Part shown: positions 23,274 through 38,217 of the stretch, piece by piece | How positions within the stretch are numbered: the first letter of the stretch is position 1 | Layout of the letters: every line of letters starts with the position of its first letter | NCBI GenBank assembly: GCA_963810935.1 | Contig: CAWEPK010000008.1 | Location: forward strand, 224,001-288,000 | Reading direction: 5' to 3' | Origin: an uncultured delta proteobacterium | GTDB lineage: Bacteria > Desulfobacterota > Syntrophorhabdia > Syntrophorhabdales > WCHB1-27 | Length of the DNA: 64,000 nucleotides | Translations under genes and position numbers: made by a program | Notes under the pieces: generated by a model | Databases searched by the model: none | What the model was told of the DNA's origin: nothing | What the model saw: the letters and a program-made list of their open reading frames with translations, nothing else

Positions 23274-23274
23274 T

Positions 23275-25377
23275 TCACGCCTCCTTAAGGTCGACTCGAA
23301 GGAACCCGAACTCGTCCGTCCGCACCAGCGCATTCTCGCCCACAATGAGAGTCGATTCCCTCTCCTCGATGATGGCCGGGCCCCGGAAAAGAGCGCCGGG
23401 GAAGAGCTTGTAACGGTCATAAACGGTGTGGGGGATGAAGTCATTGGCGACCGGCGAGTACGCCTTGCGCGTGCCCTTGATCGCAGCTTCAAGGTGCTGG
23501 CCTTTCTTCTTTGTCAGCTTCGGCAGTTGCAGCAGCTTCTCCGGCAGCACTGCCCTCACCTTGAAGTTGATGAACTCGATCTCGGAGTCGGGATACGTCC
23601 TGCCGTACAGCTTCTCGTAAACCTGGTCGAAGAGCCGGCGCACCTCGGCCCTCTGCATATCGGGGAAAGGCTTTGCGGGGATGGGCACATTGGTCTCCGC
23701 GCCCTGGCCGACAAAGCGCATATCGAGCGACCTCTCGAAGCGGATCGACGCGCCCGGGCCGTCCTTTTGCAGCGTAGCGGCGGCTTCCCCTTCCAACGCT
23801 TTGAAAATAGCCTCTATCTCCTCGAACTTTGCTTCGGCGAGCGCAACCTTGTGGCTCCTCAGCAGGTCGAACGCGCGGGGCGCGGTGAAAAAGCCGAGCG
23901 CGGAGCCGACGCCCGCGTTCGGTGGGACCAGCAGGCGCGGCGCTCCCAGCTTTTGAGCCAGGCCATACGCGTGCACCGGGCCCGCGCCGCCGAAGGCAGC
24001 GATGGTCACTATCTTCGGGTTGCCGCCCTTCTCCGCGATGTGCGTCTTTGCGGCGGCTGCCATCGTCTCGTTTATGACGTCGTGAATACCCCAGACGGCC
24101 TTCACGTACGAAACCTCGAGGGGCCCGGCTATGCGCTCCATTACGGCGCGCCTGGCAGCCTCCTTGTCGAGCTTCATCTCGCCGCCGAGGAAATAATTCT
24201 CGTCGAGGTAGCCGAGCAGAAGGTCTGCGTCCGTGACGCACGGATCGACGCCGCCCCTGCCGTAGCAGACGGGTCCGGGGTCCGCGCTGGAGCTTTCCGG
24301 CCCCACCTGGAGCGTCCCCATTTTGCTCACTTTCGCGATGCTCCCGCCGCCCGCGCCTATCTCCATGAGGTCTACGACCGGCACCTGTATCGTGAGGCCG
24401 CTCCCCTTCATGAAACGCTGCACGCGGCCCACCTCGAACGTCGGCACAACGCCTGCGACGCCTTTCTGTATCAGGCATGACTTCGCGGTCGTGCCGCCCA
24501 TGTCGAAGCAGAACATCTCAGGGATATCGAAGTGCTTCCCGTAATACTGGCCCGCTATAACCGCAGCCGTGGGCCCTGACTCGATGATGCGGACCGGGAA
24601 CCGGGCGGCCGTCTCGACGGACGTGACGCCGCCGGAAGAGAGCATTATGAAGAGCTTCCCACGGAAGCCGATCGATTCCAGCTTGCCCTGGAGCTTTGAC
24701 AGGTACTTGCCGGTCAGCGGCTTGACGTAGGCGTTCGTGACCGTGGTGCTCGTCCTCTCGTATTCCTTTATCTGCGGAAGGACTTCGTAGGAGATCGATA
24801 TCGGGACGCCGGGCATCTCCTCTTCGAGGATCCGCTTGAGAGTCAGCTCGTGGGCGGGGTTCTCGAAGGAATTGAGCAGGCAGACGGCAACCGATTCTAT
24901 GCCGAGGGCAGGCAAGGATTTTACCAGGCGTCTCGCCTCCTGGACCTTCATCGCCTTGAGCACGGTGCCGTCGCTGCGCACTCTTTCGTCCACCTCGAAG
25001 CGGAACCTCCTCGGTATCAGCGGCTCCGGGAACTCCGCGAAGATGTCATAAGGGGCATAGCGTATCTCACGGCCGATCTCCAGCACGTCCCGAAAGCCCT
25101 TCGTCGTAATAAGGGCCGTCCTGGCGCCTTTCCGTTCGATTATGGAGTTGATGACGAGCGTGGTGCCGTGGATAAGCTCGTTGAGCTTCGGCACGAAGCC
25201 GGCGACGTCTTTCTCCAATGTCCTTATGCCCTGCTCCACCGCGTCCGACGGGTCCCTCGGCGTCGTAAGGCATTTGCTCGTCCTTATCTCGCCGGTTTCG
25301 TCGTCCAGAAGGACGAAGTCCGTGAACGTCCCGCCGATATCGCAGCCCAGCCGGTAATGCTTATCATCCTTCTTCAC
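23275..25377 (-). CDS. Hydantoinase A/oxoprolinase family subunit (ATP-binding)
   Basis: DIGGTFTD, HGTT, EYERTSTT, ESGP, DMGGTT, IGAGGGSIA, GPVCYGRGG. Confidence 0.94.
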   Translation of the reverse strand: MKKDDKHYRLGCDIGGTFTDFVLLDDETGEIRTSKCLTTPRDPSDAVEQGIRTLEKDVAGFVPKLNELIHGTTLVINSIIERKGARTALITTKGFRDVLEIGREIRYAPYDIFAEFPEPLIPRRFRFEVDERVRSDGTVLKAMKVQEARRLVKSLPALGIESVAVCLLNSFENPAHELTLKRILEEEMPGVPISISYEVLPQIKEYERTSTTVTNAYVKPLTGKYLSKLQGKLESIGFRGKLFIMLSSGGVTSVETAARFPVRIIESGPTAAVIAGQYYGKHFDIPEMFCFDMGGTTAKSCLIQKGVAGVVPTFEVGRVQRFMKGSGLTIQVPVVDLMEIGAGGGSIAKVSKMGTLQVGPESSSADPGPVCYGRGGVDPCVTDADLLLGYLDENYFLGGEMKLDKEAARRAVMERIAGPLEVSYVKAVWGIHDVINETMAAAAKTHIAEKGGNPKIVTIAAFGGAGPVHAYGLAQKLGAPRLLVPPNAGVGSALGFFTAPRAFDLLRSHKVALAEAKFEEIEAIFKALEGEAAATLQKDGPGASIRFERSLDMRFVGQGAETNVPIPAKPFPDMQRAEVRRLFDQVYEKLYGRTYPDSEIEFINFKVRAVLPEKLLQLPKLTKKKGQHLEAAIKGTRKAYSPVANDFIPHTVYDRYKLFPGALFRGPAIIEERESTLIVGENALVRTDEFGFLRVDLKEA

Positions 25378-27680
25378 GCCGCTCCCCCTTCCTTTTCTTT
25401 TGCCTTAAGCGCAGCGAGCACTTTTTCCGGGGTTATGGGCAGGTCCCTTATCCTCACGCCTATCGCGTCGTACACGGCGTTCGCGATTGCCGGCGCAGTC
25501 GGCACCAGGCCCGGCTCGCCTATACCTTTCGCCCCGAACGGACCATCCTTCTCGTCCGTCTCGACTATGACCGCCTGCATGGGCGGTATGTCCCTCGCCG
25601 TAAGGATCTTGTAATCCAGGTAATTCGGGTTCATCAGCCTGCCGTCTTTGTAGACCATCTTCTCCGAAAGGGCGTAGCCGAGGCCCATAGCGCCGCCTCC
25701 CGATATCTGCCCTTCGAGGAGCATCGGGTTGAGGGCCTTGCCGACGTCGTGGGCTGCCACGTAATTGATGACCTTGACCCTGCCCGTCTCCTTGTCGACC
25801 TCGACCTCGACGCCGTGCGCGCCATAGGCGTAGGTGACGGAGAGGTTCCCTTTAAGCTCCCGGTCGAGGCACTCGTTCGGCGGGTCGTAAAAATATTCCG
25901 CCATGAGCATCTTGCCGCCCGACATGTAGTGCGCGTTCCGCAGGATTTTGGCTAGGGAGATGTTCTTTTCTTTATTGTGTCTCGCGTAAATGAGGCCGGG
26001 CGCCAGCTCCAGCCCCGACGGGTCTTCGTTCAACGCCTCGGCGGCCGCTTCAAGGATCTGCTGCTTGATCTTCATAGCCGCGCCCAGCGCCGAGTTGCCG
26101 CCGACGAACGTGGTACGGCTCGCATGGACGCCCACGTCCCATGGGCAAACGTCCGTATCATTGTTGATCACGTTCACGTCGTCCGTCGAGATGCCGAGCA
26201 CCTCCGCGACGATCTGGGCGATGATCGTGTCCGACCCCTGGCCTATGTCCGACGAGCCGGTGAAGACGTCCACCTTGCAGTAGTCGTCCATCTTGATGAT
26301 CGTGCCGCACCCGTCTGACTTGTAGACCCTCGCTCCCCCGCCGACGTGGATGAGGGTGGCCATGCCGAAACCTCTTCCTTCCTTGGCCTTGCGCTTCCCG
26401 CTCCAGCCCAGCCTGCTTTTGACCTCCGACATGCATTCCTTCATGCCGCAGGTGGTGATCTTCAGCTTCTGGGGCGTAAACTCTCCGGGCTCGTTCGCGT
26501 TCTTCAGCCTGAAATCGTAAGGTTCAATCCCCGCCTTCTCCGCAAGCTCTTCGAGGGAAGACTCGATGGCGAACGTTGCCTGGGGGTTGCCGTAACCTCT
26601 CATGGCCTGGCTATACGTATTGTTCGTATAAACACACTTGGCGATATATTTGATGTTCGGCACTTTATATAGCGAGGAGATGGGCATCATCATGACCGAC
26701 GGCGTCGTCGCCCCCCATGACGTATAGGCCCCGTTGTCGAGGATCATCTCCATGTCCCTGAAGAGTAGCTTTCCTTCTTTGGTGCAACCTTGCGAGATGC
26801 GGGTGATCGTGGGCTGCCTGGGCGACGTAGCCAGGAACTCCTCTTCCCGCGTGAAGACGATCTTAACCGGCCGCCTGGCAGCCATGGCCAGTAGTATCGC
26901 GATATATTCATAAGCGTAGGTGTCCAGCTTGCTCCCGAAACCACCTCCTATGGTGGTCTGGATGACCCTGACCCGCTTGCCTTTCAGGCCGAAGACGCCG
27001 AGCGCCTCCATGAAATCCTTCTGCGCCAGGGATGGTATCTGCGTGTTGCTGTACATCGTAAGGTTCTTAGTAGAGTCGAACTGGGCGATGCACCCGCTGG
27101 TGCCCATGCAGCAGTGGGTAACCCATTGCGTGCTGTACGAGCCTTCCACTATGAAGGCCGCCTCTTTCTTCGCCGCCTCAACGTCGCCGGAAACCAGCCG
27201 CCAGGGCAGGTTGAGGATATTGGTGGGCTTCTTCTCTTTGCCGCCCAGGTGGTCTTCGTGTATCAGGGGCGCGCCTTCTTTCATCGCCTCAAGAGGGTCG
27301 AAGACGGCAGGCAGCTCCTCGTACTCGACCTCGATCAGGTCGAGGGCGTCTTCGGCAATCTCCGGGTCCGTCGCGGCGACCGCGGCAATCTCATCCCTCA
27401 GAGAACAGACCTTGTCCTTCTTGAGCGGCGGGTTGTCCTTATAGACGCCCATCTTGAAAGGCGGGACCGAGGCGCCCGTGATGACCGCTTTCACGCCCGG
27501 AAGATTCTCCGCCCGGGAAGTATCTATGCGTTTTATACGCGCGTGGGGATAACGACTGTATAATATCTTTCCGTAGAGCATTCCGGGCAGTGCCAGGTCC
27601 TGGATGTAGGAGGCCTCACCCGTCACTTTGGCCGGCGCGTCCTTCTTGGATATCCTTTTTCCTACGGCAGTCAGCTCCAT
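25374..27680 (-). CDS. Xanthine-dehydrogenase-family molybdopterin-binding subunit
   Basis: KVTGEA, GGGFGSK, AMRGYGNPQ, DIGQGS, ASRTT, AKGIGEP (catalytic Glu retained). Confidence 0.93.
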   Translation of the reverse strand: MELTAVGKRISKKDAPAKVTGEASYIQDLALPGMLYGKILYSRYPHARIKRIDTSRAENLPGVKAVITGASVPPFKMGVYKDNPPLKKDKVCSLRDEIAAVAATDPEIAEDALDLIEVEYEELPAVFDPLEAMKEGAPLIHEDHLGGKEKKPTNILNLPWRLVSGDVEAAKKEAAFIVEGSYSTQWVTHCCMGTSGCIAQFDSTKNLTMYSNTQIPSLAQKDFMEALGVFGLKGKRVRVIQTTIGGGFGSKLDTYAYEYIAILLAMAARRPVKIVFTREEEFLATSPRQPTITRISQGCTKEGKLLFRDMEMILDNGAYTSWGATTPSVMMMPISSLYKVPNIKYIAKCVYTNNTYSQAMRGYGNPQATFAIESSLEELAEKAGIEPYDFRLKNANEPGEFTPQKLKITTCGMKECMSEVKSRLGWSGKRKAKEGRGFGMATLIHVGGGARVYKSDGCGTIIKMDDYCKVDVFTGSSDIGQGSDTIIAQIVAEVLGISTDDVNVINNDTDVCPWDVGVHASRTTFVGGNSALGAAMKIKQQILEAAAEALNEDPSGLELAPGLIYARHNKEKNISLAKILRNAHYMSGGKMLMAEYFYDPPNECLDRELKGNLSVTYAYGAHGVEVEVDKETGRVKVINYVAAHDVGKALNPMLLEGQISGGGAMGLGYALSEKMVYKDGRLMNPNYLDYKILTARDIPPMQAVIVETDEKDGPFGAKGIGEPGLVPTAPAIANAVYDAIGVRIRDLPITPEKVLAALKAKEKEGGAA

Positions 27681-28147
27681 CATCCACCTCCCACGGCGGA
27701 CTTAATGGCCTCAATAATTTGAACGTACCCCGTACATCTGCACAGATTGCCTTCTATGCCCTCCTTGATCTCATCATCGGTAGGCCGGACATTCTCATCC
27801 AGCAAGGCATAAGCAGACATGATCATCCCTGGCGAGCAGAAGCCGCACTGAACGGCCCCGTGCTCGATGAAGGCTACCTGGAGCGGATGGAGGCTGCCGT
27901 CTTTCGCCGTCAGGCCCTCGATGGTCTTCACGCTGCACCCTCCCGCCTCTATCGCGGGGAAAAGGCAGGAATTGACCGCTTTCCCATCGACGATCACCGT
28001 ACAGGCCCCGCATTCACCATGGCCGCACCCTTCCTTCGTCCCTTTAAGACCCATAACCTCCCGCAATAGATAGAGGAGGGTCCAGTGGGGTTCCACCTCC
28101 GTCCCGACGGTCTCGCCGTTCAGAACAAATGAAATTTCTTTCTTCAT
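27680..28147 (-). CDS. Xanthine-dehydrogenase-family [2Fe-2S] subunit
   Basis: GTKEGCGHGECGACTV, QCGFCSPG, GNLCRCTGY. Confidence 0.95.
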   Translation of the reverse strand: MKKEISFVLNGETVGTEVEPHWTLLYLLREVMGLKGTKEGCGHGECGACTVIVDGKAVNSCLFPAIEAGGCSVKTIEGLTAKDGSLHPLQVAFIEHGAVQCGFCSPGMIMSAYALLDENVRPTDDEIKEGIEGNLCRCTGYVQIIEAIKSAVGGG

Positions 28148-28157: not shown

Positions 28158-29120
28158 TTACCAGAGCCTGTCAGGATAAACCATCTCGTCCGGCCGCAAG
28201 ACCCGGTCGAGGGACTTCATGATCGCTCTCCGCACTAGGACTTCCACCAGTTCCCTGCGATACCACGCGTCTCCCCGTACGTCGTCTATCGGCGACGATT
28301 CGGATGCCGCGACCTGCGCCGCGGCGGCAACGGCCTCGTCGGAGAGAACGCGGCCCTTGAGCATATCTTCAGCTTTTCTCGCCCTCAGAGGACGGGGCGC
28401 AACTGCGGCCATTGCTATGCGTATGTCCTTGCAGCGCACCTCCTCGTCACCGAAATGGGAGAGTATCTCGGAGGCAGGCGCCATGCTGCATAGCATGTCC
28501 TTGCAGCGAACGTCCGTCCTGTCCAGGGTGAGCCGCACGGCGACGGCTGCGATGGGCAGGTCCACGGCGTTTCTCCTCGCCTGCCTTATATACGCCGACC
28601 CTGTATAGTCGTCTGTCTCCGGCACACGCAGCTCTTTAAGGATCTCGCCCCTCTTCAGCACTGTCATGCCCGGTCCCAGGAAAAAATCATCGAGGCTTAC
28701 GCGCCGCTCGCCTTCGGGTCCCACTATGACCCCTTCCGCGTCCAACACGAGAAGCGGGCAGGCAGTGTCGGCCGAAGGCGCGGCATTGCAGATATTGCCT
28801 CCGATGGTAGCCACGTTCCTTATCTGCGTCGACCCTACGTTGCACACAGCGTCGTGGAGGGCCGAGAGGCGCTTCTGAGCGTGCTCGTTCTTTTGGATCT
28901 CCCTGTGAGTCACGCAGGCGCCGATGGAAAGCCCGTTCAGCACGGACAACTCCTTTATGCTCCTGAGCGACGTCAGCGCCTTCACGGAAAGTCTCTTCTG
29001 CCTGAGGAGCACCATCACGTCAGTGCCGCCCGCTATGTATGCAGCGTCGCCGCTGAATCGCCCCATTAGATCGAGCGCCTCCGAAATGGAAGCGGGTTTA
29101 AAATACTCGAACCGAAGCAT
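28158..29120 (-). CDS. Xanthine-dehydrogenase-family FAD-binding subunit (CoxM-like)
   Basis: IAGGTD, QIRNVATIGGNICNAAPSAD, PIDDVRG..YR. Confidence 0.93.
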   Translation of the reverse strand: MLRFEYFKPASISEALDLMGRFSGDAAYIAGGTDVMVLLRQKRLSVKALTSLRSIKELSVLNGLSIGACVTHREIQKNEHAQKRLSALHDAVCNVGSTQIRNVATIGGNICNAAPSADTACPLLVLDAEGVIVGPEGERRVSLDDFFLGPGMTVLKRGEILKELRVPETDDYTGSAYIRQARRNAVDLPIAAVAVRLTLDRTDVRCKDMLCSMAPASEILSHFGDEEVRCKDIRIAMAAVAPRPLRARKAEDMLKGRVLSDEAVAAAAQVAASESSPIDDVRGDAWYRRELVEVLVRRAIMKSLDRVLRPDEMVYPDRLW

Positions 29121-29183: not shown

Positions 29184-30476
29184 CTAATCCTCTCTAGTGT
29201 CGAATACCCTCTTAGTCTTTCTTTCGGACCTCGGAAGCTCGCCGTAGCCGCAGATCTCGCACTCGCAGCTCACCATGATCTGCTTCTTGACCAGCGCCTC
29301 GACCGCTTTCTTGCATGCGGCGTCTCCGCCGGGAGAGGCGCCTTTTCCCCTCTCGACCTTGATGGTCATGTAATCCTTTCCGTCGCCGGCCCTCTTCAGG
29401 TGCACCTGAAATTCGCTGCCTATGCCGGGGATGCCCGAAAGCACGTGGTCGATCTGGCCGGGATAAACGTTGACGGCCCTTATGATGAACATATCGTCCG
29501 AGCGGCCCAGGAAGCGGTCGTGCCTCGGCAGGATCGAGCCGCAGGGACAGGTCCCCGGTATGGCCCTCGTCAGGTCCCTCGTCCTGTACCTGATCAGGGG
29601 CGCGGCCTCTTTCCGCAGGGTGGTGACGACGAGCTCGCCGATTTCGCCTTCCGGCACCGGCTCCAGTGTCTCAGGGTCGAGGAACTCCGCTATGTAGTAG
29701 TCGGCCCAGTAGTGAATGCCCGTGTGATGGACGCAATCGAGGCCCGTGCCCGGACCGTAAAGCTCGGTCATCCCTGGGATGTCGAATATATCCTGTACGC
29801 CGAGCATTTCCCTGATCTTCGCCCGCATTGAGTCGCTCGACCGCTCCGAGCCGAAAATGACTTTCTTGAGGTTGATCTTATCCTTGATGCCCCTCTTCTC
29901 GACCTCTTCCGCCATGAGCAGACCCATAGACGCGGTGCAGCAGAGCACGGTGGTCTTGAAATCGACGAGGAACTCGCATTGCAGGTCGATGTTCCCCGGT
30001 CCTATGGGTATCGCCATCGCTCCGAAGCGCTCGCACCCTGCCTGGAACCCGACCCCGGCCGTCCACACGCCGTAACCGACGGCGATCTGCACGCTGTCCG
30101 CCGCAGTCAGCCCGGCCATCTCATAGCAGCGCGCAAAAAAATTGGCCCAGTCATCGATGTCGCGCGCAGTATAGGCAAGCACCTTGCGCTTACCCGTAGT
30201 GCCCGAGGACGCGTGTATCCTGACAACGTCCTCCATCGGAACGGAAAGGAGCGGGAAAGGATACCCCGCCTTGAGGTCGTTGGCCGTAGTAAAAGGCAAG
30301 CGCTTCAAGTCGTCCAGCGTCTTGATCTGCTCCGGCCTGACACCGGCGTCCTCTAATTTTTTCCTGTAAAACGGAGACCCCTTAAATGCGTGCTGCACCG
30401 TCCACTTCAAGCCCTCAAGCTGAAAGGCGAGCAACTCCTTCTCGGTCTTCTGAACCGGCATGAATGTCTTTCCCAT
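29184..30476 (-). CDS. Phenylacetate-CoA-ligase (PaaK) family aryl/acyl-CoA ligase
   Basis: RIHASSGTTGK, GYGVWTAG, GMTELYGPG, PLIRYRTRD, GRSDDM. Start taken at MGKTF after GAGGGG. Confidence 0.9.
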   Translation of the reverse strand: MGKTFMPVQKTEKELLAFQLEGLKWTVQHAFKGSPFYRKKLEDAGVRPEQIKTLDDLKRLPFTTANDLKAGYPFPLLSVPMEDVVRIHASSGTTGKRKVLAYTARDIDDWANFFARCYEMAGLTAADSVQIAVGYGVWTAGVGFQAGCERFGAMAIPIGPGNIDLQCEFLVDFKTTVLCCTASMGLLMAEEVEKRGIKDKINLKKVIFGSERSSDSMRAKIREMLGVQDIFDIPGMTELYGPGTGLDCVHHTGIHYWADYYIAEFLDPETLEPVPEGEIGELVVTTLRKEAAPLIRYRTRDLTRAIPGTCPCGSILPRHDRFLGRSDDMFIIRAVNVYPGQIDHVLSGIPGIGSEFQVHLKRAGDGKDYMTIKVERGKGASPGGDAACKKAVEALVKKQIMVSCECEICGYGELPRSERKTKRVFDTRED

Positions 30477-30516
30477 GATAACTCCCCTCCACGAGAAATT
30501 GACCGGACGGGTTTTT

Positions 30517-32145
30517 CTAAAACAGGCTCGGCTCGTCGAACTCGCCGAAAATGTTGCGAAAAACACCCGTCATTTCACCAACCGTTGCGTAGGCCTTGCA
30601 GCACTCCACGAGGAAAGGCATGACGTTCTTCCCTTCCTTTGTGGCCTTTTCCAGATCACCGAGCGTCTTCGCGACGTCCCGGCTGCTCCTGCCGCGCCTG
30701 ACCTCTTTCAGGTCCTCTATCTGCTTGTTCGCCGACTCCGTATTGTATTCATGCAGCTCAACGTCCTGTGATTCTCCTTCCGTGTGGATGTTGACTCCGA
30801 CCTTTAGAAGCTCTCCGGACTGGATGCCCTTCTCGAAGTCGTATGCCTGCGCAGCCACGAGCCTCTGGATGTAACCCGTTGCGACCGCCTGCACGATGCC
30901 CCCCACTTTCTCTATGCTGGCCATCTCTTCTTCGATCTTTTGCTCCATCTCTTTCGTCAGCGTCTCGATGAAGTAGCTGCCTGCGAGCGGGTCCACCGTA
31001 TCGCGCAGCCCTATCTCGTCCATCAGAAGCTGGAGCGTGCGCAGCGAGATGATGGCCGAATGGGGCGTGGGAATGGTGTAAGCCTCGTCATAGCTGCAAA
31101 GGGCGATAGTCTGTGCGCCCGACAGGGCCGCGGCCAGGGCGTAATAGGCGCCCCGCATGATGTTGTTCTCGGGCTGCGCCTTCGTGAGGCCGTAACCCCC
31201 GCCCCCGAAGAGGCCCCGGAGATACATGTTCGAATCTTTCTTTACGCCGTATTTCTCTTTCAGGTTCCTTGCCCACATTTTCCTCGCCGCCCTGAACTTC
31301 GCCACCTGCTCCCACAGGTTGCCGAAGACGTTCAGGTTGAAGGAGAAGCGGCCGACGAAATCGTCCGCCTCGTACCCCCTCGCCAGCACGTTATCAATGT
31401 AGGCGTTCGCGATCAGGACGGCGCACGCGATCTCCTGCGCGGGCGTAGCCCCGGATTCCCTGATATGGTATCCGCACACGCTCACCGGGTTAGTCCTGGG
31501 CAGGACGTTCATCGAGTACTCGATGGTGTCGCCGATCAGCTTGACTGCGGGCTCCACGGGGAAAATCCACGAGCCCCTGCCGATCATCTCCTTCAATATG
31601 TCGTTCTGCGGCGTGGCGGAGATAACGGCCGGGCTGTAACCGAACTTCTCGGCGACCGCCTGGTACATGGCAAGCATGATCGAGGCGACCGCATTTATCG
31701 TGAGGCCGGACCCGATGCGCGCAAGGTCGATCTGGTTGAAGGCTACCTCGAAGTCACGGAGCGAATCGACCGCCATGCCCACGCGGCCCACCTCGCCCTC
31801 GGACATAGGGTCGTCCGAGTCGTAGCCCATCTGCGTGGGGAGGTCGAAGGCCACGTTGAGCCCCGTCTGCCCGTGCGAGATCATCAGCTTGAACCGCTCG
31901 TTCGTCTCGGCTGGCGTGCCGAAACCCGTATACTGGCGCGTCGTCCAGGCCCTGCTCCTGAAGCCCTGCGGGTGGATGCCCCGCGTGAACGGATACCGGC
32001 CGGGGTCGGCCAGGTCTTTTTCATATGAAAAACCTATCCGCTCCAGGTCTTCGGGACCGTAAACCGGCTTAACGTGGATACCCGACTGGAGCGTCACGTC
32101 CGTTATCTGGTCCTTCCCGTCCTTTGTGTATTTTGCAACTCCCAT
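30517..32145 (-). CDS. B12-dependent acyl-CoA mutase, large (substrate-binding) subunit; divergent from MCM
   Basis: PGRYPFTRG, RQYTGFG, VAFDLPTQMGYDSD, QNDILKE, GYHIRE, DPLAGSY. Confidence 0.92.
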   Translation of the reverse strand: MGVAKYTKDGKDQITDVTLQSGIHVKPVYGPEDLERIGFSYEKDLADPGRYPFTRGIHPQGFRSRAWTTRQYTGFGTPAETNERFKLMISHGQTGLNVAFDLPTQMGYDSDDPMSEGEVGRVGMAVDSLRDFEVAFNQIDLARIGSGLTINAVASIMLAMYQAVAEKFGYSPAVISATPQNDILKEMIGRGSWIFPVEPAVKLIGDTIEYSMNVLPRTNPVSVCGYHIRESGATPAQEIACAVLIANAYIDNVLARGYEADDFVGRFSFNLNVFGNLWEQVAKFRAARKMWARNLKEKYGVKKDSNMYLRGLFGGGGYGLTKAQPENNIMRGAYYALAAALSGAQTIALCSYDEAYTIPTPHSAIISLRTLQLLMDEIGLRDTVDPLAGSYFIETLTKEMEQKIEEEMASIEKVGGIVQAVATGYIQRLVAAQAYDFEKGIQSGELLKVGVNIHTEGESQDVELHEYNTESANKQIEDLKEVRRGRSSRDVAKTLGDLEKATKEGKNVMPFLVECCKAYATVGEMTGVFRNIFGEFDEPSLF

Positions 32146-32159
32146 CTCGCCTCCTTAAT

Positions 32160-32222
32160 GGGGCTTGCGTCGCCCCCTCCACGAGCAAAGCTCGTAGAGC
32201 CTCCCCTTCATAAAAAGGAAGA
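32160..32222 (-). repeat. 63-bp double-hairpin intergenic element (family B, copy 1)
   Basis: 54/63 identical to 36887-36949, with compensatory changes in the stem. Confidence 0.85.
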
Positions 32223-32233
32223 GGCAACACATC

Positions 32234-32656
32234 CTAACCCCGCTTCGCGTTGTCGCGGATAAACTCCACGATTTCGGAAAAACGGGTGCCGCCCGGAAAG
32301 ACGCCGGAAACGCCGAGGCCTTTTAGCCGCCCGATGTCGAGGTTGGGTATCACGCCCCCGACAAGGACCATCTTGTCGCCTATCCCCTCTTTGTCCACCG
32401 CTTTCATGAGCTTTTGCACGATGGGGATATGGGCGCCGCTCATGATCGAGAGGCCGATAACGTCCACGTCCTCCTGGATCGCTATCCTCACGATCTGATC
32501 GACGGTCCTGTGCAGGCCCGTATAAACTACCTCCATGCCCGCTTCCTTGAGGGCCAGGGCAACCACCCTTGCGCCCCTGTCGTGCCCGTCCAGTCCCGGC
32601 TTGGCAATCAATACCTTAATGGGTTTCTTGCTCTCCAACTTCCCCTCCCGCAGCAC
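32234..32656 (-). CDS. Cobalamin-binding small subunit of acyl-CoA mutase
   Basis: KPGLDGHDRG (DxHxxG), IQEDVDVIGLS, VGGVIP. Start codon uncertain. Confidence 0.93.
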   Translation of the reverse strand: MLREGKLESKKPIKVLIAKPGLDGHDRGARVVALALKEAGMEVVYTGLHRTVDQIVRIAIQEDVDVIGLSIMSGAHIPIVQKLMKAVDKEGIGDKMVLVGGVIPNLDIGRLKGLGVSGVFPGGTRFSEIVEFIRDNAKRG

Positions 32657-32669
32657 CTGCCGCTACCGA

Positions 32670-32727: not shown

Positions 32728-33435
32728 TCAATTTCCCTTTACGGACATATCTTTCAGGACTATTTCCATCCCCCGGAGAAGGTGCCTTCTGACCAGTATT
32801 TCAACGTTTTGAGGGTCCCGTTCCTTCATAGCCTGGACTATCTTTTCGTGCTCCGCGAGGGAGGCGGCCGCGTTCTCCGTGCAGTTAAGCAGGCGCCTCC
32901 TGTACCGCGAGATGAAGTCCCGGAAATTGCCTATGAGGGCGCAAAGCGTCTTGCTCCCCGAGGCATTGAAAATGATCTCGTCCAGGCTGTCGTTGAACTG
33001 CGTCATCCTCGTCGTGTCGCCGCGCTTCAATGCCTCCCTGTATCCGTCCAGGGCAGCCTCCATCCGCGCGATTGTCGACCCGTTCATGCGCGCCGTCGCA
33101 AGGCCCGCTGCGTAGCTTTCGATCACCGCCCGTATCCCGAAGGTTTCCTCTATCTCTTCCGCCGAGAGGTCCTTCACGACGAAGCCGCCCTTCTCCAGCC
33201 TTTCCACCAGGCCGTCCTGCTCCAATTTGCGAAAGGCCTCCCTGACGGGGATGCGGCTGATCTTCATCTGGCCTGAAAGAGTATTCTCAACAAGCCTCTG
33301 GCCCGGATAAAGGTCACCTTTTACGATCGCCTCCCGCAGCGAAGCGTAGGCCGTCTCCCCGATGGGGCGCGGCTTGCCGACCGCCTTGATGCCCTTAAGC
33401 GGCTTGACCGTTTTGACTCCTTGCTTCTGCGCCAC
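32728..33435 (-). CDS. GntR-family regulator with FCD domain
   Basis: LREAIVKGDLYPGQRL, SRIPVREA, EHEKIVQAM. Confidence 0.93.
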   Translation of the reverse strand: MAQKQGVKTVKPLKGIKAVGKPRPIGETAYASLREAIVKGDLYPGQRLVENTLSGQMKISRIPVREAFRKLEQDGLVERLEKGGFVVKDLSAEEIEETFGIRAVIESYAAGLATARMNGSTIARMEAALDGYREALKRGDTTRMTQFNDSLDEIIFNASGSKTLCALIGNFRDFISRYRRRLLNCTENAAASLAEHEKIVQAMKERDPQNVEILVRRHLLRGMEIVLKDMSVKGN

Positions 33436-33449: not shown

Positions 33450-33728
33450 CTATCCGCAGCGATACTGGACGCCGCATTCTCCTCTGGGATATTCCCAGGT
33501 AATGGCTTTGTGCACACAGGCGATCTTGCACGTGCCGCACTCCAGGCATCCTGCGTATTCGACGACTATCTCCTGCGTATCCTCGTTCACCGAATAGAGA
33601 TGGCCCGGGCAGATGCGGATGCAATACCTCTCCTTGCACCGGGCGCAAATCTCCTTATCCAGCTTGATATGGCTCTCTTTGTCGTTTTTGATGGCGTCGA
33701 GCGCCAGCTTCTCTTCAACCTTCATCAC
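33450..33728 (-). CDS. fixX: FixX-type ferredoxin
   Basis: CARC...CIRICP, GCLECGTCKIAC, WEYPRG..GVQY. Follows fixC. Confidence 0.9.
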   Translation of the reverse strand: MMKVEEKLALDAIKNDKESHIKLDKEICARCKERYCIRICPGHLYSVNEDTQEIVVEYAGCLECGTCKIACVHKAITWEYPRGECGVQYRCG

Positions 33729-35020
33729 ATCCGCCTCAGTGCCAGAAAGTCTTTGAACCCCTGAAACGCGCTGATATACCGTTTGTTTACCGCCTTGGCT
33801 GTCTTGTAAAGGGACCCCTTCGGCCCCTCCCCTATAGTAAAGAGCTCCTCGAACAGCTCGCAGAGGAACCGCGGGTAGACGCTTAAGAACCGTGGGTTTT
33901 CCAGTACCTCACCGGAATGGCGGAACGTCTCCATATCTTTGAGGACGAAGCTCTCCTTCAATTTCTGCTCATAGACCGAAAGCGCCCCGGCCGAGAAGTC
34001 ACCCTTCGACAGCGCCTCATCCGCAGCCTCTGCGGCGATGACGCCGGAGGCCACCGCGAAATCCATGCCCCTCACCGTAAGCCCCATATTGAGGGCCAGG
34101 CCCGCGGCGTCCCCCGCAATGAGCATCCCGCCCGTGTAAAGCTTCGTCAGGCCGCCGTACCCCGCCTCGGAGATGATATGGGCCGAATATTCCTTAAGCT
34201 CGCCGCCTTTAAGGAAGCGCGCTACTTCCGGTCTTGCCGTAAAGCCGTCGATCAGGCGGTGCATCTCGGCATCGCCCGCATTTTTCAGAAAAGAGCCTAT
34301 CCCTACGACGATGCCGGCGGAGATGCTCTCCCTGTTCGTGTAGAGAAATCCCCCGCCGAACATGCCTTTGGTAACCGACCCCGCGTAAAGGCCGGCCGCG
34401 CCCTCGCCCTCTTCGAGGCCGAAACGCTCCTCGATCCTGCCGGGCTCGAGCTTGTATACCTCTTTGATCGCTACGGCGTAATCGGCAGGCTCGAGGTCTT
34501 TCCGCAGGCCCGCCTTTTCCGCCATGAAGGAAAGCGCCCCGTCCGCGGCGATCACTATATTCGCCGGTATCTCCTCGTCGCCGATCCTGACGCCTGCTAC
34601 GCGGCCGTCCTCGAAGAGCAGCCCGTCCACCTTCCGCTTCGGGATGACGAACCCTCCCTTCTCCATGACCTTCTCGGAAAGCCAGTTGTCGAAGGTCGCG
34701 CGAAGGACCGTGTAGCTCATGTACGGCGGTTTCTTCCATTTGTCGTTTGTGTGCTCGACCTGCACGGACGCGCCCTCGTCGAGGAGCGTCACTATCTCCC
34801 TGACGACCGGCCGCTCGAAAGGCGCTTCTTTGAGGATCGCGGGGATATACTTGCGCAACGGCGCTACGTAAATCCTGCCTCCTGTAACGTTCTTGCTCCC
34901 GCACGTATCGCCCCGTTCCAGGAGTATGACCTGTCTGCCTGCTTCAAGCAGGCGGTAGGCGGCGCAAAGACCCGCAAGCCCTCCGCCGACGATCACCACA
35001 TCCATTTTATCTTCAGACAT
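33725..35020 (-). CDS. fixC: FixC-type flavoprotein (ETF:quinone oxidoreductase-like)
   Basis: VGGGLAG, ERG...GSKNVTGG, GGGFLYTN, EYSAHII, GDAAG, RGMDFA. Confidence 0.9.
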   Translation of the reverse strand: MSEDKMDVVIVGGGLAGLCAAYRLLEAGRQVILLERGDTCGSKNVTGGRIYVAPLRKYIPAILKEAPFERPVVREIVTLLDEGASVQVEHTNDKWKKPPYMSYTVLRATFDNWLSEKVMEKGGFVIPKRKVDGLLFEDGRVAGVRIGDEEIPANIVIAADGALSFMAEKAGLRKDLEPADYAVAIKEVYKLEPGRIEERFGLEEGEGAAGLYAGSVTKGMFGGGFLYTNRESISAGIVVGIGSFLKNAGDAEMHRLIDGFTARPEVARFLKGGELKEYSAHIISEAGYGGLTKLYTGGMLIAGDAAGLALNMGLTVRGMDFAVASGVIAAEAADEALSKGDFSAGALSVYEQKLKESFVLKDMETFRHSGEVLENPRFLSVYPRFLCELFEELFTIGEGPKGSLYKTAKAVNKRYISAFQGFKDFLALRRM

Positions 35021-35022: not shown

Positions 35023-36000
35023 TTATCCGCCGGTCCTCTTTTTAAGCTCCGCGGTCATCGCAGGCACTACATCGAACAAGTCTCCCACGATCCCGTAATT
35101 GGCATACTGGAAGATGATGGCGTTCGGGTCCCTGTTTACGGCAAGGACCAGCTTCGACGTATCCATGCCCATTATATGATGGATTGCGCCCGATATGCCG
35201 ATAGCAATGTACAGCTTGGGCGATACGGTCTTGCCGCTCTTGCCCACCTGGTCTTCCACGTCGCGCCAGCCCGCGTCGACGACCGACCTCGTCGCGCCGA
35301 CCGTCCCCCCGAGCACAGCCGCAAGCTCCTCGATAAGGGCAAAGTTTTCGGGGGCCTTCAGACCCCTGCCGCCTGACACTATCGTATCGGCCTCGGTGAG
35401 ATCGACCTTGCCCGCCTGCTTCTGCTCAACCCGAAGCACCTTCGTGTGCATCGCACTTGCGTCGAGCCCTGCCTGTTTCTCTATGAGGGTGCCCGCTCCA
35501 CCGGCGGCCTCAGCGACCGGGAACGTGTTCGGCCTGGTGGTCACGATAACGGGATAGGCGGCAGGTGAGACTTCCGTGAGCACCTTGCCGCCGTAAATGG
35601 GCCGCACGAAGCTCATCGGGTCTGTGTCCCATGCTGCGGCCGTTACGTCGGACACTATGCCGCAGCCGAGGAGCACTGCGACCCTCGGCAGGAAATCGCG
35701 CCCTGTCTGCGTCGCGCCCGCAACTATTATTTTAGGGTTGGCTTCCTTGGCATAACCTGCAAAGGCTGCCGCATAAGCTTCCGGCGTGTATGACTCAAGC
35801 AGGGGGTCGTCGATATGGACGAGCGTCTCCGTTAATGCGAGCAGCTTTTCTGCAAGCTTTCCGGAAAGTGGGCCCAGCACTGCGGCCTCGACCTTAAACC
35901 GGCCGGATTGCGCAAGCCGGCGGCCCTCGCTCAAAACCTCCAGGGAAGCCTTTTTTGCCTCGTCGCCCTTAGTCTCCACAAATACAAGGATAGTCTCCAT
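35023..36000 (-). CDS. etfA: Electron transfer flavoprotein alpha subunit
   Basis: VSGGRGL, GATRSVVDAGW, QVGKSGKTVSPKLYIAIGISGAIHH. Confidence 0.94.
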   Translation of the reverse strand: METILVFVETKGDEAKKASLEVLSEGRRLAQSGRFKVEAAVLGPLSGKLAEKLLALTETLVHIDDPLLESYTPEAYAAAFAGYAKEANPKIIVAGATQTGRDFLPRVAVLLGCGIVSDVTAAAWDTDPMSFVRPIYGGKVLTEVSPAAYPVIVTTRPNTFPVAEAAGGAGTLIEKQAGLDASAMHTKVLRVEQKQAGKVDLTEADTIVSGGRGLKAPENFALIEELAAVLGGTVGATRSVVDAGWRDVEDQVGKSGKTVSPKLYIAIGISGAIHHIMGMDTSKLVLAVNRDPNAIIFQYANYGIVGDLFDVVPAMTAELKKRTGG

Positions 36001-36008: not shown

Positions 36009-36791
36009 CTAAATGACCCGTTCTACGTCGGCGAGGATCTTTACCGCCTCTGCCGCGGCCTCTGCCGCTTCCCCGCCTATGATCTTAACGGGCGGCCTTT
36101 TCTTCGGGGCAAGGTAGCGTTTTACCCGCACCTTCGACCCGGCGAGGCCCACCGCATCGCTCTCCAGCCCCAGGTCTTCCGGCCCTATCTTCGGTATCTG
36201 GGCCTTCATCGCCTTCATGACACCCGTGATCGGCGCTACGCGCGGCTGGTTCAGACCTTTCTGTACGGTAATGACTGCGGGCAGGGAAACCTCGATGACT
36301 TCCCTCCCGCTTTCCGTGAGCGATTCTGCAACCGCCTTCCCTTCGCCGATATCGAGCTTCACGACTGCGCCGACGTGAGGGAGCCCCAGGAACTGCGCGA
36401 CCATGGGCCCGACCTCGCCCCTGTCGTCGTCAACGGCCTGCCTGCCGCACAATACGATGTCGTACGGCTCCTTCGCCACCGCTTTCGAGAGGGCCAGCGC
36501 GGTCGAATAGCCGTCGCCGTCGAGGAAAGCCGCGTTCTCCAGGAGCAGGGCGGCGTCCGCCCCCATGGCAATGCCGGTCCTGAGCACCTCCGTCGCCTTG
36601 CCTGCGCCCAGGGTTATGACCAGCACGCGCCCGCCGAGGCGCTCTCTTATCCGCAGGGCCTCTTCGAGGGCGAACTCGTCGAATATGCTCGTAGCGAACT
36701 TCTGCTCGATCTCGAGCTTTGCACCGTCGCCCTTTATCTCTATGGCCGCTTCCGCGTCGGGCACCTGCTTTGCCAGAACGACTACATTCAT
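36009..36791 (-). CDS. etfB: Electron transfer flavoprotein beta subunit
   Basis: KQVPD, FDEFALEEAL, AMGAD, CGRQAVDDD, LNQPR. Confidence 0.94.
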   Translation of the reverse strand: MNVVVLAKQVPDAEAAIEIKGDGAKLEIEQKFATSIFDEFALEEALRIRERLGGRVLVITLGAGKATEVLRTGIAMGADAALLLENAAFLDGDGYSTALALSKAVAKEPYDIVLCGRQAVDDDRGEVGPMVAQFLGLPHVGAVVKLDIGEGKAVAESLTESGREVIEVSLPAVITVQKGLNQPRVAPITGVMKAMKAQIPKIGPEDLGLESDAVGLAGSKVRVKRYLAPKKRPPVKIIGGEAAEAAAEAVKILADVERVI

Positions 36792-36956: not shown

Positions 36957-38105
36957 TCACGACTTGCCTATAATCAGCCTGCCCAGGAAGTCCTTGATAA
37001 TCTCGTGCGTCCCGCCGCCGTACAGCAGGAACCGGGCGTCCCTGAAGTGGCGCTGGGGGTCGTACTCGCGGGCGAAACCGTTGGCGCCCCAGATGCGCGT
37101 TACCTCATCGACCACCTTGCAGCACGTTTCCGTGGCAAACATCTTGGCCATGGCTGCTTCCTTGCGGCTGGACAGCTTTTCCTTTATACGCCATGCCGCG
37201 CTGTAGACCAACAACCTGCTCGCCTCCATCTCGGTAGCCATATCGGCGAACTTGGCCCTGATGAGCTGATAGCTGCCGATGGGCTTCCCGAAGGCGACGC
37301 GCTTCCTTGCGTATTCGAGTCCCTCGTCGTAGGCCGCCTGGGCGATACCGATCGCCATCGCGCCCGTCATGGTCCGTACCTCGTCGAGGATCTCGCCCAG
37401 GTACTCGACCCCTTTGTTGATCTCCTCGCCCAACAGGTTCTCTTCCGGCACCCTCACGTTGTCGAAAACCAGCTCGCCCGTGATCGTGCCCCTGCACCCG
37501 AGCTTATCGATCACCTGTCCTGCTGCAAACCCCGGCGTCCCTTTCTCGACGAGGAAGAAGTTGAGTCCCTTGTTCCCCAGCTTGACGTCCGTAGTCGCGA
37601 GGACCGTAGCCATGTCTGCGATAGGGCCGTTCGTGATCCACATTTTGGTACCGTTAATCACCCATTCATTTCCCTCTTTGACAGCCGTAGTCCGCGTTGC
37701 CGCGAGGTCGGACCCCGACTGGTCCTCGGTGAAGCACATGGTGGCCACCTTCTCGCCCCGCATTGCCGGATACAGGCAGCGTTCTTTGATTGCGTCGGAG
37801 CCGAAGCGGTAAATGAAATAGGTGCCCATCAGGATATTCATGATTGCGCTCTGGGCGAAGCCGACCGATGCGCGCGCTATCTGCTCGTAAAAGATCATAG
37901 CGGTGACAGGGTCCGCGTTCATGCCCCCTATCTCTTCGGGATAGCGCAGGCCCAGGTAGCCGAGCTTCCCGAACTCACGCCACAGCTCCATGGGGAACTC
38001 GTCTTTCTCGTCGATCTCCCGCGCCTTCGGCACGATCATACGGTCGACCGTATCGGTGACCATCTTTTTGAAAAATTCCTGCTCTTCGGTCAGCCTGAAG
38101 TCCAT
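36957..38105 (-). CDS. Acyl-CoA dehydrogenase family protein, atypical catalytic site
   Basis: MDFRLTEEQ, FTEDQSGSD, NGTKMWITNG, KLGCRG, RVAFGKPI, RDAR, YGGGTHEI. Confidence 0.93.
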   Translation of the reverse strand: MDFRLTEEQEFFKKMVTDTVDRMIVPKAREIDEKDEFPMELWREFGKLGYLGLRYPEEIGGMNADPVTAMIFYEQIARASVGFAQSAIMNILMGTYFIYRFGSDAIKERCLYPAMRGEKVATMCFTEDQSGSDLAATRTTAVKEGNEWVINGTKMWITNGPIADMATVLATTDVKLGNKGLNFFLVEKGTPGFAAGQVIDKLGCRGTITGELVFDNVRVPEENLLGEEINKGVEYLGEILDEVRTMTGAMAIGIAQAAYDEGLEYARKRVAFGKPIGSYQLIRAKFADMATEMEASRLLVYSAAWRIKEKLSSRKEAAMAKMFATETCCKVVDEVTRIWGANGFAREYDPQRHFRDARFLLYGGGTHEIIKDFLGRLIIGKS

Positions 38106-38217
38106 TCGCAACCTCCTCCCGGTTAGTCCCGCCGGCCTCCATTATCTCAAATGTCCGGGCGTCCTTTCAAGGGGAACCACCCTGCCCCGCCTGCACCCGC
38201 CCATGCGGAGCTTCGGC

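Follow-up and report, generated by a model that had tools for sequence, protein, structure and literature searches.

Which substrate is rearranged by a B12-dependent acyl-CoA mutase that carries a run of glycines on the strand where the methylmalonyl-CoA mutases (MCM) read H-x-Q-T? The question is raised by the gene at 30517..32145 of a 64,000-nucleotide stretch of DNA (the whole of which is here called the window). An earlier reading made from the letters alone (the sequence-only reading) had proposed a remodelled substrate pocket, with room for a bulky, e.g. aryl, substituent. The gene lies inside a 25-kb co-directional cluster, whose features, all on the minus strand, are given here from the first gene of the block onward.

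39182..40372, minus strand: family III CoA-transferase, IaaL-like, first gene of the block
38218..39168, minus strand: MeaB-type G-protein chaperone (TIGR00750, 264 bits; cut-off 241)
36957..38111, minus strand: acyl-CoA dehydrogenase, IaaF-type, reading RFLLYGGGTHEI, with GGG replacing YEG
36009..36791, minus strand: electron transfer flavoprotein (ETF) beta subunit
35023..36000, minus strand: ETF alpha subunit
33725..35020, minus strand: FixC-like FAD oxidoreductase of the ETF-oxidising type
33450..33728, minus strand: FixX-like ferredoxin
32728..33435, minus strand: GntR/FCD transcription regulator
32234..32656, minus strand: B12-binding small subunit, 140 aa, with D-G-H-D-R-G (DxHxxG) (TIGR00640, 142 bits; cut-off 57)
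30517..32145, minus strand: acyl-CoA mutase large subunit, 542 aa, ATG start; Gly-rich strand RGLFGGGGYGLT at residues 310-321
29184..30476, minus strand: PaaK-family aryl-acetate CoA ligase, IaaB-like (TIGR02155, 405 bits, under the equivalog cut-off of 646)
28158..29120, minus strand: Mo-hydroxylase FAD subunit
27680..28147, minus strand: Mo-hydroxylase 2Fe-2S subunit
25374..27683, minus strand: Mo-hydroxylase molybdopterin subunit (xanthine dehydrogenase / 4-hydroxybenzoyl-CoA reductase family)
23275..25377, minus strand: hydantoinase/oxoprolinase A-type subunit (lactam hydrolase)
21549..23492, minus strand: hydantoinase B-type subunit (coordinates of the ORF as listed)
20300..21514, minus strand: 404-aa protein without a Pfam family, between hydantoinase B and IorB
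17953..20303, minus strand: indolepyruvate:ferredoxin-oxidoreductase-type pair (alpha 17953-19716, POR_N and TPP_enzyme_C; beta 19713-20303, POR)
16684-17937 and 15218-16438, minus strand: two periplasmic solute-binding proteins (Peripla_BP_6)

The ligase ORF extends to 30566 (GTG), its likely start being the ATG at 30476; the true start of hydantoinase B is probably near 23.27 kb, since its Pfam match begins at residue 78. The name IorAB for the pair at 17953..20303 is our own reading of its domains. No RNA run was listed with the stretch 29184-33435, which is contained in five DNA runs from two studies.

A split B12-dependent mutase

Judged by its sequence, the ORF encodes the catalytic, large subunit (the TIM barrel) of a split acyl-CoA mutase that depends on adenosylcobalamin. 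The Pfam family MM_CoA_mutase (PF01642) matches residues 20-534 with an E value of 8.5e-172, TIGR00641 is matched at 528 bits (cut-off 304), and the small subunit gene, which reads GLDGHDRGA, lies just upstream. All of the motifs on which the sequence-only reading was built -- RQYTGFG at residue 70, QNDILKEMIGRG at 180, SVCGYHIRE at 222 and the Gly-rich strand at 310 -- are present in the translation. The protein thus retains Tyr72, Arg190 and Tyr226-His227, the equivalents of Tyr89, Arg207 and Tyr243-His244 of Propionibacterium (P.) shermanii MCM; in MCM, Tyr89, Arg207 and His244 are carboxylate- and thioester-binding residues. Asp353-Glu354 align to Asp369-Glu370 of MCM and are invariant in a 35-sequence alignment. 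Public sources label the large subunit as MCM.

A structure model, which the sequence-only reading had recommended building, is available from AlphaFold; it is confident (pLDDT 90.9), has eight barrel strands and places the Gly-rich motif on one of the barrel beta-strands. It superposes on MCM structures 2xiq, 1req and 4req with TM 0.92-0.93; MCM (P. shermanii MutB, 1req/4req; human MMUT, 2xij) is 31-36% identical, and shares the fold, the residues listed above, the DxHxxG B12 domain and the MeaB chaperone, whereas the window mutase is split into two polypeptides and has a different operon context. The best solved match in both sequence (E 3.6e-127) and structure (4r3u_A; TM 0.95, rmsd 1.4, 40% identity) is 2-hydroxyisobutyryl-CoA mutase (HCM, HcmAB), which is also split into large and small subunits. 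Unlike the window protein, HCM, whose substrate is an uncharged hydroxyacyl-CoA, reads RQIAGFG, with Ile at the Tyr72 position, and retains H-C-Q-T where the window protein has its glycines.

The glycine-rich strand and its clade

In the window protein the Gly-rich strand replaces the R-x-H-x-Q-T-S-G-W-S-L-T of solved MCMs. HMMER alignments to solved structures pair LRGLFGGGGYGLT of the query with LRAHCQTSGWSLT in human MCM, with LRTHSQTSGWSLT in the P. shermanii and M. tuberculosis enzymes and with LRFHCQTAAATLT in HCM; the consensus that the sequence-only reading had given for this strand holds in these alignments, and the GGGG motif, which would have counted against that reading had it been common in verified MCMs, is absent from every solved MCM aligned. 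A GGGG run stands at the same place in 118 of the 120 best relatives of the large subunit; for the relatives of a Desulfobacterales-type member the figure is 117 of 120, which makes 235 of these 240 close relatives overall. When 150 representative mutase clusters (50% identity) were surveyed, 138 spanned this stretch; H-x-Q-T was found in 43 of the 138 and the GGGG run in five, all within one clade. The motif is a hallmark of a family rather than a quirk or the product of chance.

In a FastTree tree (SH-like supports, midpoint root) the Gly-rich clade lies apart from all H-x-Q-T mutases, with support of 100 for the family of the window protein (family A) and of 99 for family A together with the GGGGGG families. 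The sister family RMIAGGGGGGLTK, a member of the same clade (SH-like support 99) at 54-57% identity to the window family, has the same GLNVA, SVCGYH, SFNx and QT-x-ALC strands, but carries six glycines, preceded by Met-Ile-Ala where the window family has Gly-Leu-Phe; its source names are mostly Bacteroidota (MAGs), and it is annotated as "acyl-CoA mutase large subunit family protein". The signature of the clade can be written GLNVA / SVCGYH / SFN / GGGG / QT-x-ALC.

The remodelling goes beyond what the sequence-only reading had noticed. Pocket changes are spread over five barrel strands, and the clade differs from six canonical mutases at 19 positions that are fixed within it (in at least 19 of 20 sequences). 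The query strands L-F-G-G-G-G-Y and T-I-A-L-C stand against H-x-Q-T-S-G-W (His328-Trp334) and S-L-H-T-N (to Asn366) of MCM. With numbering taken from alignment offsets, MCM His328 becomes Leu, Gln330, Thr331 and Ser332 become Gly, Trp334 becomes Tyr, Ser114 becomes Asn, Ser241 becomes Cys, Phe287 becomes Asn, and His364-Thr365-Asn366 becomes Ala-Leu-Cys. Residue 318 is Tyr or Phe in the branch of the window protein, Ser in the Desulfobacterales branch and Gly in the Bacteroidota-named family. The place of the glycines on a barrel strand of the model suggests that they may make room for an aryl group.

The large subunit gene is the sole PF01642 match in its 93%-complete genome, and by hand count it is carried by 81 of the 96 genomes of its order, Syntrophorhabdales, about three quarters of which have no other mutase at E <= 1e-50 (also a hand count). 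No Aromatoleum-named protein occurs among the best 120 relatives listed in each of three homologue searches; the best match in a plasmid collection has 46.6% identity to the mutase, and the ESM Atlas matches are to generic MCM clusters only. One locus labelled Pseudodonghicola (L074) was considered as a route to Proteobacteria and set aside: the sequences closest to it carry the names Desulfobacula, Desulfotignum and Desulfobacteraceae, so its contig may be misbinned.

Gene neighbourhoods and the iaa operon

For anaerobic auxin degradation, the step that rearranges the carbon skeleton was reportedly proposed in 2012. We take Mo-hydroxylase and hydantoinase-like genes to belong to the Aromatoleum iaa cluster. 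The iaa proteins, as named in PMC8360864, include the ligase IaaB, the phenylsuccinyl-CoA transferase IaaL, the benzylmalonyl-CoA mutase IaaGH, the dehydrogenase IaaF and the binding protein IaaM; IaaGH of the Aromatoleum aromaticum iaa operon is there a predicted phenylsuccinyl-CoA / benzylmalonyl-CoA mutase, with Ebenau-Jehle 2012 and Schuhle 2016 cited. The same paper describes IaaF as shown to be active on benzylmalonyl-CoA, GGG in place of YEG as its hallmark, every member of the IaaF subclass as having GGG and sitting in an iaa operon, and an extra ETF in the predicted iaa operons of strict anaerobes; among the organisms for which it names iaa operons are Desulfatiglans anilini, strain NaphS2, Desulfocarbo indianensis, Ferroglobus placidus and Rhodopseudomonas palustris (PMC8360864). 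Compared by gene content with the A. aromaticum operon as given there, the window cluster likewise holds a two-subunit B12 mutase alongside a ligase of the PaaK type, a CoA-transferase of family III and a decarboxylating dehydrogenase of the GGG type (the window dehydrogenase has YGGG where its family has YEG), and like the operons of strict anaerobes it has an ETF of its own (PMC8360864). It differs from the A. aromaticum operon in its host, by source names a Syntrophorhabdales-type syntroph, and in the added FixCX-like and IorAB-type genes. Our literature search found the rearrangement step in a single paper, no assay for that step or for any enzyme of the Gly-rich clade, and no link between Syntrophorhabdus and indoleacetate.

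A similar neighbourhood is found around relatives. Family A was followed in the best 80 of 559 loci from a contig scan, all from MAGs, at 68-96% identity, many of them on short contigs. Among these 80 the neighbours include the small subunit (73), hydantoinase A (62), hydantoinase B (53), GntR (57), the CoA-transferase (46), the ligase (45), the dehydrogenase (44) and the Mo subunits (34-37), while weak relatives of the 404-aa protein occur in seven; one or another partner gene is missing within reach in 34-46 of the 80, which is partly a matter of the short contigs. For the sister family, 80 metagenome loci gave the small subunit in 62, the dehydrogenase in 44, the CoA-transferase in 40, hydantoinases A and B in 27 each and the Mo subunits in 23-25; this family clusters more often with a thiolase (20/80 loci) and a DUF35-like OB-fold protein (16/80). 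A dehydrogenase specifically of the GGG type lies near the family A mutase in 36 of the best 80 loci and, when only loci of 15 kb or more are counted, in 26 of 44; for the sister family (family B) the figures are 50 of 80 and 24 of 24. Each of the two Gly-rich branches keeps the iaa-type neighbourhood. In three loci (L003, L005 and L016) the mutase, MeaB and GGG-type dehydrogenase stand apart from the ring-opening genes, and the neighbours of this module there are proteins of the glyoxalase-fold, saccharopine-dehydrogenase-like and class III aminotransferase types; two of the three genomes carry, at another site, a hydantoinase A with 80% identity.

Predicted role and alternatives

Since the cluster matches the iaa genes and both Gly-rich branches keep this neighbourhood, the gene probably encodes an IaaGH-type (2-aminophenyl)succinyl-CoA / (2-aminobenzyl)malonyl-CoA mutase that acts in anaerobic indoleacetate breakdown, the substrate being read from gene context. 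The sequence-only reading had left a choice between an arylsuccinyl-CoA/benzylmalonyl-CoA (IaaH-like) specificity and a new one: the first option has gained from the iaa-type neighbourhood and the GGG-type dehydrogenase, and the second has lost, as this specificity had been predicted for IaaGH before.

In the predicted pathway, indoleacetyl-CoA would be supplied by the PaaK-type ligase or else, with indolepyruvate as the direct precursor, by the IorAB-type enzyme, and would then be hydroxylated by the Mo-enzyme; the hydantoinase-like pair would open the lactam ring, and the resulting (2-aminophenyl)succinate would be converted to its CoA thioester via the family III transferase. The mutase large subunit, working with the 140-aa B12-binding subunit and the MeaB chaperone of the same block, would shift the thioester carbon in a 1,2-rearrangement driven by the 5'-deoxyadenosyl radical to give (2-aminobenzyl)malonyl-CoA, this being the presumed direction of flux. 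The GGG-type dehydrogenase would oxidise and decarboxylate that product to 2-aminocinnamoyl-CoA, with the electrons passing to the ETF/FixCX of the cluster. Within the mutase, Tyr72, Arg190 and Tyr226-His227 would keep their hold on the free carboxylate and on the thioester carbonyl, and Gly, Ala, Leu and Cys in place of bulky polar barrel residues may form a cavity for the aryl ring. As the sole PF01642 match of its genome, with Tyr, Arg and His kept, the mutase could also act as the general succinyl-CoA mutase of the organism.

The same chemistry might act on another substituted succinyl-CoA, with an N-heterocyclic or aromatic acid of a related kind as its source, or on an alkylsuccinyl-CoA, in a cluster that degrades some compound other than indoleacetate. 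Such a substrate is unlikely, though several observations speak for it: the indoleacetate-type substrate comes from context, the near-universal occurrence of the gene is wider than one would expect of a plant-hormone pathway, residue 318 differs by lineage, and in the L003-type loci an aminotransferase gene and one of saccharopine-dehydrogenase-like type accompany the mutase module. Against these, a Mo-hydroxylase, a hydantoinase-type lactam hydrolase and a PaaK-type ligase, followed by IorAB-type genes, fit an indole-3-acetyl skeleton; no gene for alkylsuccinate synthase or another glycyl-radical enzyme was seen among the window ORFs scanned; and the partner dehydrogenase bears the motif of an enzyme that was shown to act on benzylmalonyl-CoA (PMC8360864).

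That the protein is an ordinary MCM, converting succinyl-CoA to methylmalonyl-CoA with an odd strand irrelevant to specificity, would agree with the retained Tyr, Arg and Tyr-His residues, with its public annotation and with the lack of any further PF01642 match in the genome. We consider this very improbable: its score against the MCM equivalog NF006944 is 434 bits, far below the cut-off of 876; it has lost Ser114, Phe287, Gln330, Thr331, His364, Thr365 and Asn366 (P. shermanii numbering), which are common to the six canonical representatives and the solved MCMs; and it is conserved beside iaa-type genes, not propionate-pathway genes. A degenerate or non-catalytic paralogue, which the missing residues conserved in characterised mutases might suggest, is scarcely credible when 74 of the 96 Syntrophorhabdales genomes carry an unbroken reading frame (hand count; 67-100% identity), the replacement residues are themselves nearly invariant, Asp353-Glu354 is invariant in the 35-sequence alignment, and the DxHxxG B12 subunit and MeaB are kept.

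Beyond the IaaGH-type role of this one gene, we tentatively suggest that the Gly-rich clade may be a distinct and widespread class of arylsuccinyl-CoA mutases with a pocket rebuilt over five strands. In Syntrophorhabdales, where the gene is near-universal, usually the only acyl-CoA mutase, and here tied to IorAB-type genes and ETF/FixCX, syntrophic fermentation of indoleacetate and of tryptophan-derived indolepyruvate might thus be a core, so far unrecognised trait of the order, whose members are syntrophs of aromatic compounds. The signature separates the Gly-rich class from MCM, ICM and HCM, and should correct thousands of "methylmalonyl-CoA mutase" annotations. The class would also offer a natural example of a B12 barrel rebuilt for an aryl substituent, relevant to benzylmalonyl-CoA-type polyketide extender units, and it suggests that Syntrophorhabdales, an order common in anaerobic digesters, peat and soil, along with many Desulfobacterota and Bacteroidota, can degrade indoleacetate or tryptophan-derived indolepyruvate without oxygen.

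The mutase and its gene cluster

The open reading frame at 30517-32145 (-) encodes a 542-aa acyl-CoA mutase large subunit with an ATG start, matched by the Pfam MM_CoA_mutase model over residues 20-534 (E 8.5e-172). It scores 528 bits with the NCBIfam acyl-CoA mutase N-terminal domain model (cut-off 304) and 434 bits with the methylmalonyl-CoA mutase (MCM) equivalog model, far under the cut-off of 876. All four motifs quoted in the sequence-only reading are present in the translation: RQYTGFG (70), QNDILKEMIGRG (180), SVCGYHIRE (222) and the Gly-rich RGLFGGGGYGLT (310). The mutase is the tenth of about 20 co-directional (-) genes, running from 40372 down to 15218.

Genes of the mutase cluster
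39182-40372 (-), family III CoA-transferase
38218-39168 (-), MeaB
36957-38111 (-), acyl-CoA dehydrogenase, reads ...ARFLLYGGGTHEII...
36009-36791 (-), ETF beta
35023-36000 (-), ETF alpha
33725-35020 (-), FixC-like oxidoreductase
33450-33728 (-), FixX-like ferredoxin
32728-33435 (-), GntR regulator
32234-32656 (-), B12-binding small subunit, reads DGHDRG
30517-32145 (-), mutase large subunit
29184-30476 (-), PaaK-family CoA ligase (405 bits, under the PaaK equivalog cut-off of 646)
28158-29120, 27680-28147, 25374-27683 (-), three subunits of a xanthine-dehydrogenase-family Mo-hydroxylase
23275-25377 (-), hydantoinase A
21549-23492 (-), hydantoinase B
20300-21514 (-), 404-aa protein without a family (best Pfam E 0.21)
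17953-20303 (-), two indolepyruvate:ferredoxin-oxidoreductase-type (IorAB-type) genes
15218-17937 (-), two periplasmic binding proteins

Encoded between hydantoinase B and the IorB-type gene, the 404-aa protein has weak relatives (24-75% identity) in seven of the 80 related loci; IorAB-type genes are also present in five of those seven. A second Mo-hydroxylase set of the same family, at 40742-44486 (+), is divergent from the cluster, with an FAD subunit (40742-41743, +), a 2Fe-2S subunit (41740-42231, +) and a Mo subunit from 42239 (+) that is split over two frames. With the cluster Mo subunit as tblastn query, the match to residues 1-498 is in frame 2 (42239-43708) and that to residues 514-755 is in frame 3 (43755-44486), a division that indicates a frameshift or assembly error near 43.71-43.75 kb. 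One flank of the cluster (1-14866) carries three RND efflux sets, with AcrB-type pumps at 2542-5697, 7365-10523 and 10527-13664 and OEP and HlyD-type partners; the other carries two TRAP transporter sets, DctQ/DctM at 46294-48087 and DctP/Q/M at 49831-52758.

Passages of PMC8360864 describe the iaa operon of Aromatoleum aromaticum, in which IaaB activates indoleacetate to its CoA thioester, IaaL acts as phenylsuccinyl-CoA transferase and IaaGH is predicted to be a mutase of benzylmalonyl-CoA or phenylsuccinyl-CoA. According to the same passages, GGG replaces the YEG of other acyl-CoA dehydrogenases in all enzymes of the IaaF subclass, all encoded in iaa operons, and an extra ETF is encoded in the iaa operons predicted for strict anaerobes (Desulfatiglans anilini, other sulfate reducers and Ferroglobus placidus). 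The window dehydrogenase has the GGG (ARFLLYGGGTHEII), and the cluster has ETF alpha and beta together with the FixCX-like genes, in agreement with both features as given there.

The glycine-rich strand and the substrate pocket

The mutase was aligned to solved structures, with 11 distinct chains matched. Its Gly-rich stretch aligns with LRAHCQTSGWSLT of human MCM, with LRTHSQTSGWSLT of the MCMs from P. shermanii and M. tuberculosis, and with LRFHCQTAAATLT of 2-hydroxyisobutyryl-CoA mutase (HCM). The MCM/ICM consensus given for this strand in the sequence-only reading is thus essentially right, and the GGGG run is found in no solved MCM. Among the 120 best relatives of the window mutase (84-100% identity) the run is present in 118, as RGLFGGGG followed by Y, F or A, and RGLFGGGGSGLT is found in 117 of the 120 relatives listed for a Desulfobacterales-type member.

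When 1.84 billion cluster representatives were searched with HMMER, 18,392 relatives reached E <= 0.001, and 2,007 reached E <= 1e-30. The Gly-rich stretch is covered by 138 of the best 150; H-x-Q-T is present in 43 of these and a GGGG run in only five, namely two fragments of family A (the window mutase's own family) and P0124, P0125 and P0132, in which the stretch is RM(I/M)A(G/A)GGGGGLT. In a FastTree phylogeny of 142 full-length rows (SH-like support, midpoint root), family A has a support of 100 and is joined to the GGGGGG families with a support of 99, and this Gly-rich clade stands apart from every canonical H-x-Q-T mutase. Among P0125-P0273, many clusters keep the Tyr and Arg yet carry other non-canonical beta-7 strands, such as VFAGGNGIS, TLAGGNGSL, IFAFTAGS and VQAYTGGSD. 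Tyr and Arg are kept in 67 of the 138 representatives, with H-x-Q-T in only 21 of those, and a large share of the acyl-CoA mutase superfamily seems to have specificities without assignment.

The structure model proposed in the sequence-only reading was built with AlphaFold from a 35-sequence alignment (mean pLDDT 90.9) and superposes on solved HCM (4r3u; TM 0.95, rmsd 1.4) and MCMs (2xiq, 1req and 4req; TM 0.92-0.93). DSSP places the eight barrel strands at 68-74, 95-100, 145-149, 177-180, 222-224, 268-272, 311-314 and 346-348. When 20 sequences of the Gly-rich clade were compared with six canonical mutases, 19 positions had one residue in at least 19 of the 20 clade sequences and a different one in the canonical mutases; 10 of these positions lie on or just after barrel strands.

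Clade-fixed residues by barrel strand, with the P. shermanii MCM residues (numbered from the offsets of the alignment to solved structures)
Strand 2: Asn97, MCM Ser114
Strand 5: Cys224, MCM Ser241
Strand 6: Asn270, MCM Phe287
Strand 7: Gly314-Gly315, MCM Gln330-Thr331
Strand 8: Thr346 and Ala348-Leu349-Cys350, MCM Ser362 and His364-Thr365-Asn366

Outside the 19-of-20 criterion, the mutase also differs from the solved MCMs in having Leu312 (His328), Gly316 (Ser332) and Tyr318 (Trp334), while Tyr72, Arg190 and Tyr226-His227 are common to both; Asp353-Glu354 is invariant in the 35-sequence alignment. In MCM the CoA thioester passes through the barrel along its axis, the carboxylate and carbonyl are held in place by Tyr89, Arg207 and His244, and Gln330, Asn366 and Glu370 adjoin the substrate and 5'-deoxyadenosine. 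If these roles are right, the clade changes would strip bulky polar side chains from the place faced by a substituent on the carbon that accepts the migrating group; for benzylmalonyl-CoA, this acceptor carbon would be the benzylic one.

Gene neighbourhoods in two mutase families

For family A, the best 80 of 559 genomic relatives (68-96% identity) were searched for partners by tblastn with the window proteins; many of these loci are contigs of a few kb, so that misses are partly technical. The small subunit was found in 73/80, hydantoinase A in 62, GntR in 57, hydantoinase B in 53, the CoA-transferase in 46, the ligase in 45, the dehydrogenase in 44, the Mo subunits in 34-37, the ETF subunits in 26-29, MeaB in 22 and IorAB-type genes in 5. 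One family A mutase (L074) is carried by a MAG labelled Pseudodonghicola, an alphaproteobacterium; its nearest relatives listed are all named Desulfobacula, Desulfotignum or Desulfobacteraceae, and the contig is probably misbinned.

Family B, a large sister family 55% identical to family A, reads RMIAGGGGGGLTK, with six glycines, and also occurs within iaa-type clusters. Most of its source names belong to Bacteroidota (Flavobacteriales, Saprospiraceae, Crocinitomicaceae, Bacteroidales), and Ignavibacteriae occurs once. ORFs of 80 metagenome loci (L082-L161) were clustered and the cluster representatives scanned with Pfam, giving as neighbours a B12 small subunit (62/80), acyl-CoA dehydrogenase (44/80), family III CoA-transferase (40/80), hydantoinases A and B (27/80 each), Mo-hydroxylase subunits (23-25/80), thiolase (20/80), a DUF35-like OB-fold protein (16/80), RidA (15/80) and an Ior-type oxidoreductase (11/80). 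At L154:11615-15475 (+), a single 1286-aa open frame holds a Mo-hydroxylase large subunit (144-785) and a family III CoA-transferase (883-1250); this may be a genuine fusion, or else two neighbouring genes in one frame, and the median length in its ORF cluster is 788 aa.

The GGG-type dehydrogenase motif is present in 36 of 80 family A loci (26/44 of those of at least 15 kb) and 50 of 80 family B loci (24/24 at that length). With the iaa-type neighbours found in both families, the Gly-rich strand therefore occurs together with the iaa-type gene set in at least two deep branches, and this co-occurrence is the main argument for an IaaGH-type function.

An exception is seen in three loci, L003, L005 and L016, whose mutases are 87-90% identical and whose only companions by tblastn with the window proteins are MeaB, the GGG-type dehydrogenase and the small subunit. 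In L003 (5815-14958) the order is MeaB, dehydrogenase, GGG-type dehydrogenase, small subunit and mutase. Next come a protein with a glyoxalase fold, as in methylmalonyl-CoA epimerase, then a saccharopine-dehydrogenase-like protein and lastly a class III aminotransferase. A pair similar to the last two lies at 54381-56835 (-) in the window, about 15 kb from the cluster, with no epimerase-like ORF seen beside it. The L003 and L005 genomes encode a hydantoinase A (80% identity) at another site; in the 2.7-Mb genome of L016 the same query found none. The arrangement is read as the same pathway divided between two loci, though the mutase/dehydrogenase module might also serve a second role.

Predicted function and distribution

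The sequence-only reading had offered either an IaaH-like arylsuccinyl/benzylmalonyl-CoA mutase or a new specificity. Gene context supports the former as the predicted function, and the specificity is not new, being that already predicted for IaaGH. By the chemistry established for MCM, homolysis of AdoCbl would give a 5'-deoxyadenosyl radical that takes a hydrogen from the substrate, here a succinyl-CoA with a 2-aminophenyl group supplied by the cluster transferase; the thioester carbonyl would move between two adjacent carbons and the hydrogen be given back. Irreversible decarboxylation by the GGG-type dehydrogenase would then pull the reaction forward, as passages of PMC8360864 argue for Aromatoleum. 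In the literature searched, that was the only relevant paper found to name IaaGH or the mutase, and no pairing of Syntrophorhabdus with indoleacetate was found.

The closest mutase proteins listed have the source names Syntrophorhabdales, Syntrophorhabdaceae and Syntrophorhabdus, and the mutase is the only PF01642 match in the window's assembly (4.06 Mb, 93% complete). Within the order, 84 of 96 genomes have a match at E <= 1e-50 and 12 have none at that threshold. By hand count, 81 of the 96 have a copy of at least 67% identity (74 intact and full-length; 7 partial, split or with a stop) and three have distant mutases only.

New here are the multi-strand signature of this mutase class, its near-universality in Syntrophorhabdales, its link to IorAB-type genes, and the inclusion in it of a large, mostly Bacteroidota-named family. 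With family B in iaa-type clusters, the pathway would reach phyla beyond those named in the passages of PMC8360864.
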